Below, piece after piece: positions 1,403 to 11,108 of a stretch of 11,609 nt of DNA (positions within the stretch are counted from its first letter, which is position 1; the number at the start of each line of letters is the position of its first letter). The stretch covers positions 1 through 11,609 of IMG/VR virus record IMGVR_UViG_2802429218_000006; one strand, written 5' to 3'. The translations under genes and the position numbers were made by a program. Origin of the DNA: a virus. Lineage: Duplodnaviria; Heunggongvirae; Uroviricota; Caudoviricetes. The notes under the pieces are model-generated. The model was not told where the DNA came from and did no database searches. It saw only the letters and a program-made list of their open reading frames with translations.

Positions 1403-3058
1403 ATGATTAGTGCAAAAAACATTCTTTTCAGCAGTCGACATACTGATGCTGATGTAACTTTACATATCAATAATGTTATAAGATACCCCAAAAAATATAT
1501 GAATAATCATATCTATATATTAGATATAGACATGTATATTCAGACTGAAGACATGAAAAATCAAGCATATATAGATAATGACATTAGAAGCCCCCTGAAA
1601 ATGCTATTTATTGGAGAGGAACTAACAGAGTCAACTTTATTTGACTTATTATCCCAATCAGAAATATCGCTTCATGAAGTTAAGGTTAAATATGAATTTG
1701 ATTATATCTGTCAGATGTCAGAAGATGGATATAGATACATCAACAATAAATTAGAAACAGTCGCTTCATTATCTTTACTTAGAGCTATTAAGGATTTTGG
1801 TGTAAACTACAATATTATAAGAAACAAATCCTTTCTAAAAAAATATTCAGACAAGATATTCTCTACGTTATTACTAGATAACACTTTCAGTTCTTATGCC
1901 TTTGAAAATGGCTATAAATATTTTAATGTCGATGATGGTGCCGTTTACCAATTACAGCCCCCAACAAAATTTATTATTTATGACGAAGAAAAACAGCCGT
2001 ATAAACTTAAGATGGAGAGTCTGTTAAATATTAATATACCTATTCATGCACTAATTGGTAAGAATGGTAGCGGGAAAACCTATTTAATTAATAAAATAAT
2101 CAAACAATCTATTTCAACTGACCTAGAAATAAGATCTTCTGGCGCAGTTTTTAGTCGAATGATAGTTTTATCAAATACAATAAATGATAAGTGCTATAGA
2201 CCGGCAAATATAACCAAAAACAAATTCAAGTTAAATAACTATCATTTTGTATCGTTAACATCAGAAAAATATTATAATAAGCTTTTCCCACGAGGGAAAA
2301 AGCTAACTCTATTTTCTTTATTAGAAAAAATACAGAAACGAGATTCTAATAAGCGAGGTAACTTTGAACAGGGGGATTTGCTTGATAGAGTTACTCAAGA
2401 TATTATTCCCGAGTTTTCTTTTTCCATTAAAACAAATCTTGGGGAGCATATTTACAATAGTTTTTTAGAGTTAACTAGACAATATGGATTAGTTAATTTA
2501 AACTCAAACTTAGACTTAATTACGAGTTCAGAAATCGAATATGCATTACCTGATGAAGATATCCATTTCTATAAAAATAATGAACCCTTTACCTTAAGCT
2601 CAGGGCAATTATCTTTTTTAGTTAGCATGTTTTCTCTAATCTCAACAATAGAGAGTAATAGTCTTATACTTATAGAGGAACCAGAAAATTTTTTACACCC
2701 AAGTTTATTAACACATTTTATAAACTCACTAACACACATTCTAAGAGATACTAATTCTATCGCAATTATGGCCACCCACTCTGCTTTGGTACTTAGAGAA
2801 ATCCCTTCAGCACAAATAACAATCCTACATAGAAGAGACAATATCACCAACTATAAAACACCGAATATTGAAACATTTGGTGCCGATACTCATCAAATAA
2901 TGATAGACGTTTTTGGTGATTTATACTCTAATGCGATATTTAGAGAAGAGCTATCAAACATTGCAAAAAACAAAACAATCGATGAATTATTAGTGCAGTA
3001 TGGTGATTTACCTTCTGATGTATTAAATAAAATCATCATGGAGAAAAATTCAAAGTGA
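1403..3058 (+). CDS. ABC-type (SMC-head-like) ATPase with a ~200-aa N-terminal extension of unknown function; first gene of the candidate defence cassette
   Basis: Walker A GKNGSGKT (aa 219-226, nt 2057-2080); ABC signature LSSGQ (aa 398-402); Walker B LILIEEPENFLHP (aa 421-433, nt 2663-); H-loop ATHS (aa 457-460). Shine-Dalgarno AGGA lies 7 nt upstream of the ATG. Strongly AT-rich codon usage unlike the backbone. Confidence 0.85.
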   Translation: MISAKNILFSSRHTDADVTLHINNVIRYPKKYMNNHIYILDIDMYIQTEDMKNQAYIDNDIRSPLKMLFIGEELTESTLFDLLSQSEISLHEVKVKYEFDYICQMSEDGYRYINNKLETVASLSLLRAIKDFGVNYNIIRNKSFLKKYSDKIFSTLLLDNTFSSYAFENGYKYFNVDDGAVYQLQPPTKFIIYDEEKQPYKLKMESLLNINIPIHALIGKNGSGKTYLINKIIKQSISTDLEIRSSGAVFSRMIVLSNTINDKCYRPANITKNKFKLNNYHFVSLTSEKYYNKLFPRGKKLTLFSLLEKIQKRDSNKRGNFEQGDLLDRVTQDIIPEFSFSIKTNLGEHIYNSFLELTRQYGLVNLNSNLDLITSSEIEYALPDEDIHFYKNNEPFTLSSGQLSFLVSMFSLISTIESNSLILIEEPENFLHPSLLTHFINSLTHILRDTNSIAIMATHSALVLREIPSAQITILHRRDNITNYKTPNIETFGADTHQIMIDVFGDLYSNAIFREELSNIAKNKTIDELLVQYGDLPSDVLNKIIMEKNSK

Positions 3059-3954
3059 GAATTTTATCTAAGCCAGAGGGTATTGATGATCTACTTAATA
3101 ATATAGATCTTAACTCATCTATTGATGCCTTTTTATCGCTCGATGAACCGACTGGAATTGCTGACTTAAGAAATAAAAAAAATGATCTCTTGAACGAAAT
3201 TGAGAATTATCACACTGAGATGATTGAACGAGGTCATTTATCACATAACACGAGAAAAAACTTCTCAAAATATAAATCCATACTTGAGTGGATTTATTAT
3301 CACCCAAGTCAGCGAAGAAAAACAGACTACATAAACTCGATACGAAAACTTTACGCCCAAAGTGGAACTCTATGTCCTTACTGTGGGGTTTCTCCTTGCA
3401 GGACATTAGACCATTACTACAACAAAGCTTTATTACCACAGTTTTCATTTCTTCCTGAAAACCTTATTCCGTGCTGTGGTGATTGTAATAGAGACAAGGG
3501 AGCAAAAAAAGCCTTTAGCAAATGGAGAAGATTTGTCAATCCATTCTATGATGATTTCTCATCGTTAGAAAAAAATGAACCTCTCATATATATAATTTTC
3601 AAAGAAAGACCAAGATCTAGAATTGACATGGAATATGTAATGACAGCCAATCATAATCTAGACTTTTTAATAAGAAAACAAATAAACTATCACATTAGAA
3701 CAGTAAGAATCCCTTTCTATCATCATGAAGCCATAAGCAATTCATTTTGGAGAAACGCGAAAGACCTAATAAAGTTTAAAAAATTAGTCACTGACGGTGA
3801 TATAGATAATACAATTTATGATAAAATCATTGATGGTTTCATAGGCAAAAACAATGCTATGAATTATGACTGGGAATATATTATTAGATATTCATTAGTC
3901 AAACTTCGTATTAATCACTGGATTTATAACAGCAACCTACCAAAATTAATGTAG
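3055..3954 (+). CDS. HNH endonuclease-domain protein; second gene of the candidate defence cassette
   Basis: Zinc-finger HNH core CPYCG..LDHYY..N..CCGDCNRDKG (aa 107-148, nt 3373-3498) flanked by ~100-aa N-terminal and ~150-aa C-terminal regions of unknown function. GTG start at 3055 overlaps the TGA stop of the ATPase (GTGA), indicating translational coupling. Same AT-rich composition as the ATPase gene. Confidence 0.85.
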   Translation: MRILSKPEGIDDLLNNIDLNSSIDAFLSLDEPTGIADLRNKKNDLLNEIENYHTEMIERGHLSHNTRKNFSKYKSILEWIYYHPSQRRKTDYINSIRKLYAQSGTLCPYCGVSPCRTLDHYYNKALLPQFSFLPENLIPCCGDCNRDKGAKKAFSKWRRFVNPFYDDFSSLEKNEPLIYIIFKERPRSRIDMEYVMTANHNLDFLIRKQINYHIRTVRIPFYHHEAISNSFWRNAKDLIKFKKLVTDGDIDNTIYDKIIDGFIGKNNAMNYDWEYIIRYSLVKLRINHWIYNSNLPKLM

Positions 3955-6478: not shown

Positions 6479-6756
6479 CGTTCATGGACTTTTTGTGCTG
6501 TGTATTACTTTTTATTTTTATTAATTAACTGAAATAAATAAGAAAAAACAATTTGTATTTCACTATAATTTTTTCCAGCTCCTTCCAGAGCGTTTTAAAG
6601 CTATCTGGCGCTGATGTGCAAAAAACACACAGCAATTGTAAGGCTGCCGGAACAAATCCCCCCTGTTGCGTCTGCTGAAAATATTCACAAAATAAAGCGC
6701 TACCCGAAGCCGGACGGACTTATCCGGTGCTGTATGGACATTAACGAGGTAGCCCG

Positions 6757-7023
6757 ATGCAAGCTGTTTTTTCTTCCCCGTCTCCTGCCCCTGTGACGCC
6801 ACTGATGCCGCTGCCGGACATCACGCAGGAGCGTTTTTTACGTCTGCCGGAAGTGATGCACCTGTGCGGCCTGTCACGCTCGACCATCTACGAACTCATC
6901 CGTAAGGGGGAATTTCCGCCGCAGGTGAGTCTTGGCGGTAAAAATGTGGCCTGGCTGCACTCTGAAGTCACCGCATGGATGGCCGGGCGCATTGCCGGAC
7001 GCAAACGGGGGTACGACGCATGA
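6757..7023 (+). CDS. vis: Vis / AlpA-family helix-turn-helix regulator (excision and late-gene control)
   Basis: 88 aa (the size of P4 orf88/vis) with an AlpA-like HTH segment ([28 protein letters not shown]). GAGG Shine-Dalgarno 8 nt upstream. First gene of the plus-strand left operon. Confidence 0.75.
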
Positions 7024-7574
7024 TGATGCCTGTTCTGCAAAAACTCCCTTTTTCTGGCTTGCCTTTTTCCGGCATTTGCGGATATAGTTTTTCCGCTGTC
7101 GCAAAATCGGCAGCCGGGCGTAGGAACCCGAGTTACTTCAAGGCGACATATGACGCGCCATGCGTCTTTTTTTACGTCGTTGCTTCGGCACACCTGTTTT
7201 TCTGGCTGTGGTTTTTAAACCGTAGCCTCTGTCAGATAATGGTGGTCCGGGCGGGGCAGCCTTCGGGCTGGCCGGTTTCCTTGAAGGCCGGTATTCCTAC
7301 CCCCGTCCGGGCTACCACCCATGAGCGTAGGAACTCCAGTGGTAGCTGTAACTGTTACTTCAAGGAGGCTGCCATCATGGCTACAACCCTTACCCCCTCA
7401 CACCCTGAATTTGTCTTTGTGTTTGCGGCTGTCCGTCGCGCAGACCGTCATCCCCGTATCTGCATGCTTCGCACCGTCGCCGGTGATGAACGCAGCGCCC
7501 GCCGTTCCCTTGTCCGTGACTATGTGCTCTCCCTTGCTGCCCGTCTGCCGGTGGTGGAGGTGTCCCGTGCGTAA
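6975..7574 (+). CDS. Possible eta-like ORF (199 codons) that reads through the immunity-RNA region, with the kil-like ORF nested in the same frame
   Basis: A 600-nt open frame starting inside vis, upstream of the PLE-like promoter, and spanning the structured RNA region. Consistent with the nested kil/eta arrangement described for P4, but the protein is low-complexity and could be an artefact of GC-rich sequence. Confidence 0.3.
7059..7088 (+). promoter_or_regulatory. Candidate sigma-70 promoter (PLE-like) driving the immunity / left operon
   Basis: TTGCCT (7059-7064), 18-bp spacer, TATAGT (7083-7088), about 30 bp upstream of seqA. Confidence 0.45.
7118..7143 (+). promoter_or_regulatory. seqA-like target site for the immunity RNA
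   Basis: GCGTAGGAAC..TTACTTCAAGG. The two blocks are complementary to CCTTGAAG (7279-7286) and TTCCTAC (7294-7300) inside the structured RNA. Confidence 0.55.
7241..7320 (+). ncRNA. cI: CI-like immunity RNA (P4-type antisense RNA carrying seqB); boundaries approximate
   Basis: Highly structured segment: GGTGGTCCGGGCGGGG pairs with CCCCGTCCGGGCTACCACC (one G-T wobble and a 3-nt bulge), plus an internal CAGCC-TTCG-GGCTG hairpin. The internal seqB blocks are complementary to both flanking seqA and seqC. Confidence 0.5.
7325..7365 (+). promoter_or_regulatory. seqC-like target site overlapping the ribosome-binding site of the kil-like ORF
   Basis: GCGTAGGAAC (7325-7334) and TTACTTCAAGG (7355-7365) repeat the two seqA blocks. 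The second block runs straight into the AGGAGG Shine-Dalgarno of the ORF starting at 7377. Confidence 0.55.
7377..7574 (+). CDS. Small kil-like protein (65 aa); resembles the Ash/Icd-like small proteins of P4-type prophages
   Basis: Strong AGGAGG Shine-Dalgarno 8 nt upstream of the ATG. First ORF after the immunity RNA. Sequence [25 protein letters not shown]... Confidence 0.55.
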
Positions 7575-7854
7575 TAAAAAAGCCCCTCAGACCGTCTCAG
7601 CGCGTCATGACGCCCGTGAACACCTCAGCATTGAGGCTTACCATAAGCTCAACCGCGCCAGCGCCGTATCCCAGTTTGTTGGGGGTGATTTGATTCACCG
7701 TGAACTCTCCGGCCTGCATCAGCTCTACATTCCGCATATTTTCAGTTACCTGAATGAAGATATTGATTTTGTGCTGAATGAACTGAAAGCCAAAGGCCTG
7801 TGCCGCGATTTTCTCGCCCAGCAGAAAGACCGGGGAGACAGGACGCATGTTTGA
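7567..7854 (+). CDS. Epsilon-sized small protein (95 aa) with a GTG start; position and size match P4 epsilon, the derepression protein
   Basis: No in-frame ATG exists. The GTG at 7567 is preceded by GGAGG at 6-nt spacing and overlaps the stop of the kil-like ORF. Product length is exactly 95 aa. Identification is by synteny and size only. Confidence 0.45.
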
Positions 7855-8308
7855 TTTTCCCCAGCCCGGTGAGATTTACCGTTCTGCCGGTTTTCCCGAT
7901 GTGGCCGTGGTCGGCATTCTGGAAGACGGTATTCCGTGGGAAATGCCGTACCGCTGCCCGGACATTGTCTGGAACCCGTACCGCCGTAAATTCAGTATCC
8001 TTGTGCGTATCCTCGCTGACGGGCGCACCACAGACATCCCGCTGGGGCGTTTTCTGCGGGAATTTACCTGTGACCGTCCTGACCTGTTCAAACGCAGCCC
8101 CGTAAACCGGCATGCGGTACTGAAAGAAATGGCCGGAGACCCGGAATTACAGAAATGGCGGGAGAAATATCTGGATATTTACCCGCAGGACCCTGTTCCG
8201 GTCAGCCGGGCGGCACCGGTGGCGCGGGAATGGCGGGAAATTCCCCGCACGGAGCCTGACCCGGCCCCCCCCCCCCGGATAACAGTTACCGCAATTATCT
8301 GTAATTAA
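7847..8308 (+). CDS. Hypothetical protein, orf151-like by position (153 aa); contains a C12 homopolymer near its 3' end
   Basis: ATG overlaps the stop of the preceding ORF (ATGTTTGA). The C12 run at 8265-8276 encodes the PAPPP segment of the product. Confidence 0.6.
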
Positions 8309-8774: not shown

Positions 8775-11108
8775 ATGAAAATGAACGTAACCGCCACCGT
8801 CAGCCATGCGCTCGGCCACTGGCCGCGTATTCTCCCGGCGCTGGGGATTCAGGTGCTGAAAAACCGTCATCAGCCCTGTCCGGTCTGTGGCGGGAGTGAC
8901 CGCTTCCGTTTTGATGACAGGGAGGGGCGCGGCACCTGGTACTGCAATCAGTGTGGTGCCGGTGACGGCCTGAAACTGGTTGAAAAGGTGTTTGGTGTTT
9001 CCCCGTCCGACGCGGCCGCAAAGGTGGCTGCCGTGACCGGCAGTCTGCCACCGGCTGACCCGGCAGTGACGGCTGCCGCCGGTGCTGAAACAGACGCTGC
9101 CCGGAAGAACGCCGCCGCACTGGCACAAACCCTGATGGCGAAAACCTGTCCCGGAACCGGTAACGCCTACCTGACCCGCAAGGGCTTTCCCGGCCGGGAA
9201 TGCCGGATGCTGACCGGCACACACAGAGCCGGTGGCGTGAGCTGGCGCGCCGGTGACCTTGTGGTGCCACTGTATGACGACAGCGGCGAACTGGTTAACC
9301 TTCAGTTAATCAGTGCTGACGGCCGTAAGCGCACCCTGAAAGGCGGACAGGTCAGGGGCACCTGTCACACCTTTGAAGGACAGAATCAGGCCGGAAAACG
9401 TCTGTGGATAGCGGAGGGATACGCGACCGCACTTACCGTGCATCACCTGACCGGTGAAACGGTGATGGTGGCGCTTTCTTCCGTGAATCTCCTTTCTCTG
9501 GCCAGCCTTGCCCGGCAGAAGCATCCGGCCTGTCAGATTGTCCTTGCCGCAGACCGTGACCTCAGCGGTGACGGCCAGAAAAAAGCCGCCGCAGCCGCAG
9601 ATGCGTGTGAAGGTGTTGTTGCCCTGCCGCCGGTCTTCGGTGACTGGAATGATGCCTTCACGCAGTACGGCGGGGAAGCCACCCGTAAGGCCATTTATGA
9701 TGCCATCCGGCCACCGGCTGAAAGCCCGTTCGACACCATGAGCGAAGCGGAGTTTTCCGCCATGAGTACCAGCGAAAAGGCCATGCGTATCTATGAGCAT
9801 TACGGCGAGGCGCTCGCGGTCGATGCCAACGGCCAGCTTCTGTCCCGTTATGAAAATGGTGTCTGGAAGGTGCTGCCACCACAGGACTTTGCCCGGGATG
9901 TGGCCGGGCTGTTTCAGCGGCTGCGTGCGCCGTTCTCCTCCGGGAAGGTGGCCTCCGTGGTGGACACCCTGAAGCTGATTATTCCGCAGCAGGAAGCCCC
10001 CTCCCGCCGCCTGATTGGCTTTCGTAACGGCGTGCTCGACACGCAGAACGGCACGTTCCACCCGCACAGTCCGTCACACTGGATGCGCACCCTGTGCGAT
10101 GTGGATTTCACCCCGCCGGTGGAAGGGGAAACGCTGGAAACCCACGCCCCCGCGTTCTGGCGCTGGCTTGACCGTGCCGCCGGTGGCCGTGCGGAAAAAC
10201 GCGACGTGATTCTGGCCGCACTGTTTATGGTGCTGGCAAACCGCTACGACTGGCAGCTCTTTCTGGAGGTGACCGGTCCCGGCGGCAGCGGCAAAAGTAT
10301 CATGGCCGAAATAGCCACCCTGCTGGCCGGGGAGGATAACGCCACGTCGGCCACCATCGAGACGCTGGAATCCCCGCGTGAACGTGCCGCGTTAACTGGC
10401 TTCTCACTGATACGCCTGCCGGACCAGGAAAAATGGAGCGGCGACGGTGCCGGACTCAAGGCCATCACCGGCGGCGATGCGGTGTCCGTTGACCCGAAAT
10501 ACCGGGATGCATACTCCACGCATATCCCGGCGGTAATTCTGGCCGTGAACAATAACCCGATGCGCTTCACCGACCGCAGCGGCGGCGTGTCACGCCGGCG
10601 GGTGATTATTCACTTCCCGGAACAGATAGCCCCGCAGGAGCGCGACCCGCAGCTTAAGGACAAAATCACCCGCGAGCTGGCGGTCATCGTGCGTCACCTG
10701 ATGCAGAAGTTCAGCGACCCGATGCTCGCCCGGTCACTGCTTCAGTCCCAGCAGAACTCAGACGAGGCACTGAACATCAAACGGGATGCCGACCCGACGT
10801 TTGATTTTATCGGCTATCTGGAAACCCTGCCGCAGACCAGCGGCATGTATATGGGGAACGCCAGTATCATCCCGCGTAATTACCGTAAATACCTCTATCA
10901 CGCCTATCTGGCCTACATGGAGGCAAACGGCTACCGGAATGTACTCAGTCTGAAAATGTTCGGGCTGGGGCTGCCGGTGATGCTGAAGGAATACGGACTG
11001 AATTACGAGAAGCGCCATACCAAACAGGGGATACAGACCAACCTGACGCTGAAAGAGGAAAGCTACGGCGACTGGCTGCCAAAATGTGACGACCCTGCAA
11101 CAACCTGA
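8775..11108 (+). CDS. alpha: Alpha primase-helicase replication protein
   Basis: 777 aa (the P4 alpha length). N-terminal zinc-ribbon primase motif CPVCGGSDRFRFDD..WYCNQCG, a TOPRIM-like region, and a C-terminal helicase Walker A GPGGSGKS. AGGAG Shine-Dalgarno upstream. Confidence 0.92.
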   Translation: MKMNVTATVSHALGHWPRILPALGIQVLKNRHQPCPVCGGSDRFRFDDREGRGTWYCNQCGAGDGLKLVEKVFGVSPSDAAAKVAAVTGSLPPADPAVTAAAGAETDAARKNAAALAQTLMAKTCPGTGNAYLTRKGFPGRECRMLTGTHRAGGVSWRAGDLVVPLYDDSGELVNLQLISADGRKRTLKGGQVRGTCHTFEGQNQAGKRLWIAEGYATALTVHHLTGETVMVALSSVNLLSLASLARQKHPACQIVLAADRDLSGDGQKKAAAAADACEGVVALPPVFGDWNDAFTQYGGEATRKAIYDAIRPPAESPFDTMSEAEFSAMSTSEKAMRIYEHYGEALAVDANGQLLSRYENGVWKVLPPQDFARDVAGLFQRLRAPFSSGKVASVVDTLKLIIPQQEAPSRRLIGFRNGVLDTQNGTFHPHSPSHWMRTLCDVDFTPPVEGETLETHAPAFWRWLDRAAGGRAEKRDVILAALFMVLANRYDWQLFLEVTGPGGSGKSIMAEIATLLAGEDNATSATIETLESPRERAALTGFSLIRLPDQEKWSGDGAGLKAITGGDAVSVDPKYRDAYSTHIPAVILAVNNNPMRFTDRSGGVSRRRVIIHFPEQIAPQERDPQLKDKITRELAVIVRHLMQKFSDPMLARSLLQSQQNSDEALNIKRDADPTFDFIGYLETLPQTSGMYMGNASIIPRNYRKYLYHAYLAYMEANGYRNVLSLKMFGLGLPVMLKEYGLNYEKRHTKQGIQTNLTLKEESYGDWLPKCDDPATT

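Follow-up and report, generated by a model that had tools for sequence, protein, structure and literature searches.

The stretch of DNA analysed here (11,609 nucleotides (nt), referred to as the window; IMG/VR virus record IMGVR_UViG_2802429218_000006) is, as judged from its sequence, a P4-like satellite prophage of Escherichia coli. Between its vis and epsilon genes, a long reading frame stays open through a predicted promoter, a leader RNA, the gene for the CI immunity RNA and the second CI target seqC, and ends at the stop codon of kil. Very probably this frame is the eta gene of the satellite, conserved across the Enterobacterales and under selection for the transit of ribosomes. For phage P4, the gene, its nesting with kil and the function proposed for it date back to 1999, and the exact protein of 184 amino acids (aa) encoded in the window is already present in public databases; it is therefore not a new kind of system. 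What is added here is a corrected start codon at position 7020, quantitative evidence from many genera for selection on the frame, and indications that translatability is selected rather than the peptide. The features on which this rests are:

6975..7574, plus strand: reported open frame from its first ATG (list of open reading frames (ORFs); ATG start, 199 aa)
7020..7574, plus strand: eta in its conserved form, 184 codons and a stop, with an ATGA overlap with vis (frame comparison across relatives)
7020-7376, plus strand: eta-specific part, 119 codons
6757..7023, plus strand: vis, AlpA-type excisionase/regulator, 88 aa, 99% identical to P4 ORF88/Vis
7377..7574, plus strand: kil, Icd-like cell-division inhibitor, 65 aa, forming the 3' third of the eta frame and 100% identical to P4 Kil

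A sequence-only reading of the window had described a frame of 199 codons from 6975 to 7574, opening at an ATG within vis upstream of a PLE-like promoter, passing through seqA, a structured RNA and seqC, and carrying a kil-like ORF in frame at its 3' end. The ORF list, the translation and the features located here bear out this description, and the 65-residue Kil sequence (...VVEVSRA) is the C-terminal end of the 199-residue translation.

Conservation of the frame among relatives

Relatives were collected through neighbouring genes and not through the eta frame itself. In this way 42 loci were obtained via Vis (65–100% identity) from genomes of many enterobacterial genera, and a further 80 loci from IMG/VR via Kil. 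In all non-truncated loci kil is located 350–400 nt downstream of the vis stop codon. The kil frame is open back to this stop in 39 of the 41 distinct sequences from P4, the window and the genome loci, and in 48 of the 51 distinct sequences from IMG/VR; when both sets are taken together, it is open in 86 of 91 distinct intervals, or in 115 of 120 loci. The open intervals fall into eight length classes (354, 357, 360, 363, 381, 390, 393 and 402 nt), all of which are multiples of three. Over 39 loci the kil frame contains no stop codon at all, as against 109–204 stops in each of the five other frames. The eta-specific part is nevertheless diverged among these relatives, with a median pairwise identity of 75% and a minimum of 59%.

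The effect of shared ancestry on these counts was limited by counting alignment columns with polymorphic stops instead of stops per sequence. There are 0, 19 and 17 such columns in frames 0, 1 and 2, respectively, at an equal opportunity for stops to arise (0.30, 0.30 and 0.32 stop-creating single substitutions per codon). Under equal rates, the probability that none of the 36 polymorphic-stop columns falls in frame 0 is approximately (2/3)^36 = 5e-7. The window alone is less informative, as the open frame survives in 1.5% of dinucleotide-shuffled versions of 7020-7376, which places the frame only weakly beyond chance.

Conservation across related satellites had been proposed as a check of the frame, with frequent interruptions in close relatives as the outcome that would count against it. 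Interruptions proved to be rare, with 5 exceptions among the 91 distinct intervals, each of them a single distinct sequence, and the comparison favours an eta-like gene. The frame is broken by a 1-nt deletion in the CI loop (locus L005), by an extra A in seqC (L104), by a 2-nt deletion just before CI (L121) and by lengthening of the T run at the leader terminator from T7 to T8 (L111; window positions 7167-7173), which is the sole difference in that sequence. The fifth exception, a Phytobacter element (L010, 2764-3340), has an extra ORF of 72 codons between vis and the promoter, in the frame of eta and with an ATGA overlap with the vis stop; beyond the stop of this extra ORF, but still ahead of the promoter, the frame is open again and has possible GTG starts after GAGG. 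At the homopolymer altered in L111, which may be prone either to slippage or to sequencing errors, such a change would switch off eta.

Other ORFs in the region were considered and rejected. The minus-strand ORFs at 6888-7193 and 6874-7104 lie in minus frames holding 109–185 stops across the relatives, and the long epsilon-containing frame at 7321-7854, considered as an extension, is likewise interrupted by stops in that frame across relatives.

The start codon of eta

From the comparison of loci, the conserved start of eta is judged to be the ATG at 7020-7022 and not that at 6975, since in most relatives an in-frame stop is found immediately upstream of the ATG in the ATGA overlap. In the window the TGA stop of vis (7021-7023) overlaps this start, and the ATGA overlap of the vis stop and eta start is found in nearly all loci. 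The start is preceded by a putative ribosome-binding sequence:

7007..7011, plus strand: GGGGG, similar to a Shine-Dalgarno sequence, 8 nt before the ATG at 7020

In 41 loci the sequence upstream of the eta start has the consensus AACCGGGGcTatGACGCA, directly followed by TGA, in which the GGGG motif is conserved. One locus (L037) has GTGA instead of ATGA, together with a strong AAGGAGG at the right distance, i.e. a compensating Shine-Dalgarno sequence.

The earlier proposal of a start at 6975 thus holds in part. An ATG at this position does open the frame in the window, but the 15 codons of 6975-7019 are not conserved, being open only in the clade of P4 and the window and in one other locus (L039). 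The count of 199 codons is a coincidence of the first ATG, and the conserved gene has 184 codons here. The exact 184-residue protein is found in NCBI on 33 contigs, under the names 'Icd-like' and 'ash family protein', and the 199-residue version starting at 6975 was not found in the public protein collection.

Probable selection on translation rather than on the peptide

The eta-specific part and kil, which share a single reading frame, show very different patterns of variation. Codon-position entropy at positions 1, 2 and 3 is 0.60, 0.60 and 0.57 in the eta-specific part, as against 0.23, 0.22 and 0.80 in kil. Codon usage scores about 0 bits per codon in the eta-specific part, compared with 0.32 in kil, 0.31 in vis and 0.44 in epsilon. 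A comparison of synonymous and non-synonymous constraint, also suggested at the outset, gave a ratio of non-synonymous to synonymous substitution rates (dN/dS) in frame 0 of 0.86 for the 119 eta-specific codons and of 0.14 for kil. The off-frame values are 0.87 and 0.80 for the eta-specific part and about 2 for kil. The eta-specific part is hence without amino-acid constraint by this measure, and, as its ratio equals that of the off-frames, selection appears to act on translatability itself and not on an Eta-specific peptide.

The long form of the protein does match a Pfam family, Phage_ASH (PF10554), with 116.8 bits (threshold 26) over the full model, at residues 37-146 of the 199-residue form. 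The NCBIfam model phage_ICD_like (NF033153; cut-off 25) gives 73.4 bits with the long form and 76.1 bits with Kil alone. The conserved peptide motifs (AVAKSAAG and a second one) coincide with stems of the isrK leader and the C4 RNA, and the variable 'residues' of seqA and seqC change jointly, in the manner of words that pair as RNA. Since the motifs coincide with RNA stems and amino-acid constraint is lacking, the Phage_ASH match largely mirrors conservation of the promoter and RNAs. Proteins annotated by the Prokaryotic Genome Annotation Pipeline (PGAP) as combining Phage_ASH and phage_ICD_like resemble the present one in that both models are matched; here, the 'Ash' part corresponds to a translated promoter and two RNA genes. 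On balance, we favour the view that the 119 eta-specific codons, and with them much of Pfam 'Ash', are not a protein domain in the usual sense, but a promoter and RNA genes kept translatable, free of stops and with indels in triplets only, for the passage of ribosomes from late transcripts over the immunity RNA and its targets.

Database annotation of this gene is inconsistent, and the 'Ash' family should be used with caution for the reason just given. In one window-type element PGAP lists two features in place of the gene, an 'ash family' pseudogene and a coding sequence (CDS) of 65 aa. RefSeq entries also disagree with each other: at 7001-7600 of the locus from E. coli Y5 (L045) an 'ash family protein' pseudogene and a 65-aa Icd-like CDS are given, and at 646-1245 of the locus from strain 673 (L046) one 199-aa 'Icd-like' CDS from the ATGA start.

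Alternative explanations

The alternative raised in the sequence-only reading was a frame open by chance in GC-rich DNA. Taken as a frame in moderately GC-rich DNA that is carried along passively by conserved RNA and promoter sequence, it draws on the proportion of window shuffles that stay open and on the lack of codon periodicity or codon-usage signal in the eta-specific part. Long ORFs do arise by accident elsewhere in the window, e.g. one of 253 aa, and thus longer than the reported frame, at 9306-10067 on the minus strand, antisense to the alpha primase gene, so that ORF length alone is no evidence of a gene in this DNA. A passive frame is hard to reconcile, however, with segments that diverge down to 59% identity and gain no stop, when the two other forward frames have 36 polymorphic-stop columns, with the eight length classes of the 86 open sequences all being multiples of three, or with an ATGA start and Shine-Dalgarno sequence that are either conserved or compensated. 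The comparative counts effectively refute this explanation, to which we attach next to no weight; together with the homologous frame in P4, the identical Kil and the shared stop codon, they speak for an eta-like gene. Almost as improbable is that translation starts at 6975, yielding a 199-aa product with an N-terminal extension of 15 codons that overlaps vis. In the window, in P4 and in two of the genome loci (L003 and L039) the open frame has no earlier ATG, but in most relatives a stop in this frame just before the ATGA means that such an extension cannot exist. Moreover, there is no clear Shine-Dalgarno sequence before 6975, only the 184-residue sequence and not the 199-residue one is represented in the public collection, and the PGAP annotation of the P4-type gene begins at the ATGA (199-aa product, WP_000980227.1).

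Somewhat less remote, albeit still unlikely, is that Eta is a functional two-domain protein, in which an N-terminal 'Ash' domain has a role of its own, for instance in modulating or localising the Icd-like Kil domain. The listing of Phage_ASH as a Pfam protein family with so strong a match, the PGAP product name 'ash family protein', a hydrophobic stretch of 17 residues following the T run and a slightly lower dN/dS of the spacer in frame 0 are all compatible with such a protein. They are outweighed by a frame-0 dN/dS that is indistinguishable from those of the off-frames, without third-position excess, by the low dN/dS and strong periodicity of Kil in the very same sequences, and by the coincidence of conserved motifs with isrK and C4 stems and of variable residues with co-changing pairing words. 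Our preferred interpretation, an eta gene maintained for ribosome transit, has points against it as well. The relatives are not phylogenetically independent, a problem that the column count lessens without removing it, and the five relatives with a broken or altered frame are possibly still functional elements. In the spacer at 7173-7234 the frame-0 dN/dS is 0.57, compared with 0.80 and 0.69 in the off-frames, values that are near saturation, and constraints on the RNAs and promoter could hide weak amino-acid selection. Finally, we infer translation and antitermination in the window element from what is known of P4.

Elements within and around the frame

The frame spans several regulatory elements, which together with those flanking it are:

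6637..6654, plus strand: TGT-N12-ACA dyad, a candidate activator site of the late promoter PLL (pattern match, about 400 nt upstream of PLE)
7059..7088, plus strand: predicted constitutive promoter of PLE type (TTGCCT, 18-nt spacer, TATAGT; match to a sigma-70-like consensus)
7095..7172, plus strand: isrK/SeqA-type leader RNA (Rfam RF01394, 70.5 bits, threshold 50, full model)
7115-7143, plus strand: seqA, complementary to seqB (inverted-repeat pairs I2 and I7)
7152-7166, plus strand: terminator-like hairpin, followed by a T run to 7173 (terminator scan)
7235..7322, plus strand: CI immunity RNA, C4 antisense RNA family (Rfam RF01695, 86.1 bits, threshold 45, full model)
7278-7305, plus strand: seqB, the exposed part of CI (inverted repeats I2, I4 and I7)
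7325..7366, plus strand: seqC, second CI target (direct repeat of seqA, D5 and D6; inverted repeat I4 with seqB)
7567..7854, plus strand: epsilon, derepression protein (Pfam Derepression, 170 bits; 99% identical to P4 epsilon)

The predicted promoter, with its -35 hexamer at 7059-7064 and its -10 hexamer at 7083-7088, lies inside the eta frame and downstream of the start at 7020. The Rfam model of isrK begins at 7095, 7 nt past the -10 hexamer, and we infer that transcription starts at about this position. A repeat search showed that seqA and seqC repeat one another in direct orientation and that each is complementary to two segments of the C4 RNA. At the 3' end of seqC, the word CTTCAAGGA (7358-7366) overlaps the Shine-Dalgarno sequence of kil, AAGGAGG (7362-7368). 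The two targets of CI, the gene for CI itself and the ribosome-binding site of kil all lie within the frame. The placement of the dyad at 6637-6654 as an element of PLL follows the published layout of P4 and makes it a candidate; five matches to TGT-N12-ACA were found where 2.5 are expected, a count which by itself is not significant.

The genes of the left operon form a chain of overlaps. Besides the ATGA shared by vis and eta, epsilon begins with a GTG inside kil, giving an overlap of 8 nt (7567-7574), and epsilon and ORF151 overlap by another 8 nt (7847-7854). Most relatives have an ATGA in which the stop of kil and the ATG of the next gene overlap, with GGAGG before it. Such a chain fits with continuous coverage of the late transcript by ribosomes.

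The words of seqA and seqC co-vary in modular combinations across the relatives L003-L044. Expressed as peptides, the words RRN, REN, IGV, ICS and ISS are found with YFK, NSQ, YLL, NLL, NSM, LTM and LTV. This suggests that many immunity specificities are built from two independently varying pairing words. Calculated duplex energies of whole CI with cognate and non-cognate seqA and seqC (window versus P4) did not discriminate between the pairs, in a calculation (duplexfold) that omits the cost of opening CI.

Proposed mechanism

In the mechanism proposed for P4 and considered here for the window, transcripts from PLE would start at about 7095 and hence be without the eta start, so that they would remain untranslated until kil. 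On these transcripts the CI RNA would pair with seqA and seqC, occluding the ribosome-binding site of kil, and termination of the naked PLE RNA would constitute the immune state. Only transcripts from the late promoter PLL, upstream of vis, would be able to carry the eta start. On them, ribosomes finishing vis could re-initiate at the ATGA (7020) and translate seqA, the CI gene and seqC without a break, melting the leader hairpins, covering the pairing targets and shielding the RNA from CI and Rho. As CI and Rho would be denied access by the ribosomes, the late transcript would continue into kil, epsilon and the primase gene, and these would be expressed irrespective of immunity. A frame that is kept free of stops without constraint on its amino acids is consistent with this P4 model, in which ribosomes on the late transcript override termination.

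If so, a device by which P4 bypasses immunity, using translation to override RNA-mediated termination, would have been kept by selection in the P4-like satellites of many enterobacterial genera. It would also mean that one and the same stretch of DNA serves as a promoter, a small RNA gene, an antisense-RNA gene, an antisense target and an open reading frame.

The satellite element and its surroundings

The assignment of the window to the P4-like satellite prophages follows from its identity to phage P4 (95.5% over 6700-7900 in a DNA comparison), from its gene neighbours, i.e. integrase, Psu, Delta, an ORF at the position of Sid, Vis, Epsilon, ORF151, DUF5375 and alpha primase, and from near-full-length copies carried by E. 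coli chromosomes. A related copy is found in about a third of complete E. coli genomes; 2,259 places in E. coli were counted.

Two overlapping plus-strand genes are located at 1403-3954, between the integrase gene and psu. The first encodes an AAA_21/PtuA-like ATPase of 551 aa, and the second a protein of 299 aa that PGAP names HNH endonuclease in near-identical E. coli copies. The pair matches PDC-M01A/B, a Septu-like candidate defence system in PADLOC. The cargo between integrase and psu is not the same in other E. coli copies, where it consists of a P-loop nucleoside triphosphatase, a reverse transcriptase together with SLATT, or a dCTP deaminase.

Two of the collected loci have Vis proteins of 99% and 70% identity and lie in assemblies labelled 'uncultured Clostridiales bacterium' (L004) and 'Vagococcus sp.' (L040). 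Both are enterobacterial P4-like sequences, and contamination or mis-binning is the likely cause of these host labels.

Comparison with P4 and other C4 RNA modules

The nested kil/eta pair of P4 was published by Forti et al. (1999, J Bacteriol 181:5225; cited in PMC10111431). According to the lines of PMC10111431 that cite this work, full-length Eta of P4 can be made only from transcription at the upstream late promoter, and translation of eta prevents the immunity-specific, Rho-dependent termination, so that the late transcript reads through. The frame in the window resembles that of P4 in its position between vis and epsilon, its stop codon, its fully identical Kil, its opening at an ATGA overlap with vis upstream of PLE, and its extension over seqA, cI and seqC. 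The P4 frame comprises 214 aa from the first ATG and 199 aa from the ATGA, compared with 199 and 184 aa in the window. The difference resides in the immunity block (approximately 7095-7370), which has diverged from P4 and is in the window a net 45 nt (15 codons) shorter, with different words for seqA, seqB and seqC. As the seqA, CI and seqC sequences of the window are unlike those of P4, their comparison suggests that the window element has another immunity specificity.

An isrK-type leader followed by a C4 RNA is also found in D6 (P1-like, L128), phiKO2 (N15-like, L127) and mEp460 (lambdoid, L129). The immI-type modules of D6 and phiKO2 (isrK-like leader, C4 RNA, icd, ant) share with the satellites the order of isrK-type leader, C4 RNA and then an Icd-like gene. 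They differ in having no long frame that runs from upstream of the promoter across the RNA genes: in D6, icd is an ORF of 71 aa starting after C4, and in phiKO2 it is an ORF of 54 aa that also starts after C4, with a separate frame of 101 aa over C4 ending at 1502. In contrast, mEp460 has an ORF of 383 aa of the antirepressor/Rha type (L129, 742-1893). It starts approximately 360 nt ahead of isrK, overlaps the stop codon of the gene before it and runs through isrK (1102-1178) as well as C4 (1203-1290). Lambdoid isrK-C4-antirepressor modules are represented by 113 phage records at 60–80% identity.

In Gifsy-1, orf45 of the IsrK-orf45-anrP module, an ORF over the antisense-RNA region, is conserved in nucleotide sequence but variable in amino acids, and the antirepressor downstream is expressed only if orf45 is translated (PMC4825925). 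In Gifsy-1 the control consists of translational activation by a small RNA, not of an override of termination, and in both Gifsy-1 and mEp460 the downstream partner is an antirepressor (Rha/Bro type) instead of Kil, epsilon and primase. From the short icd genes after C4 in D6 and phiKO2 and the long ORF in mEp460 it follows that not every C4 module has a translated frame running across its immunity RNA, a feature common to the P4-like satellites and at least one lambdoid module. A similar point is made for Bro-network genes in PMC10111431. The logic proposed here for eta, in which RNA genes are kept translatable, may thus extend to lambdoid antirepressor modules with a long ORF across isrK and C4, as in mEp460.

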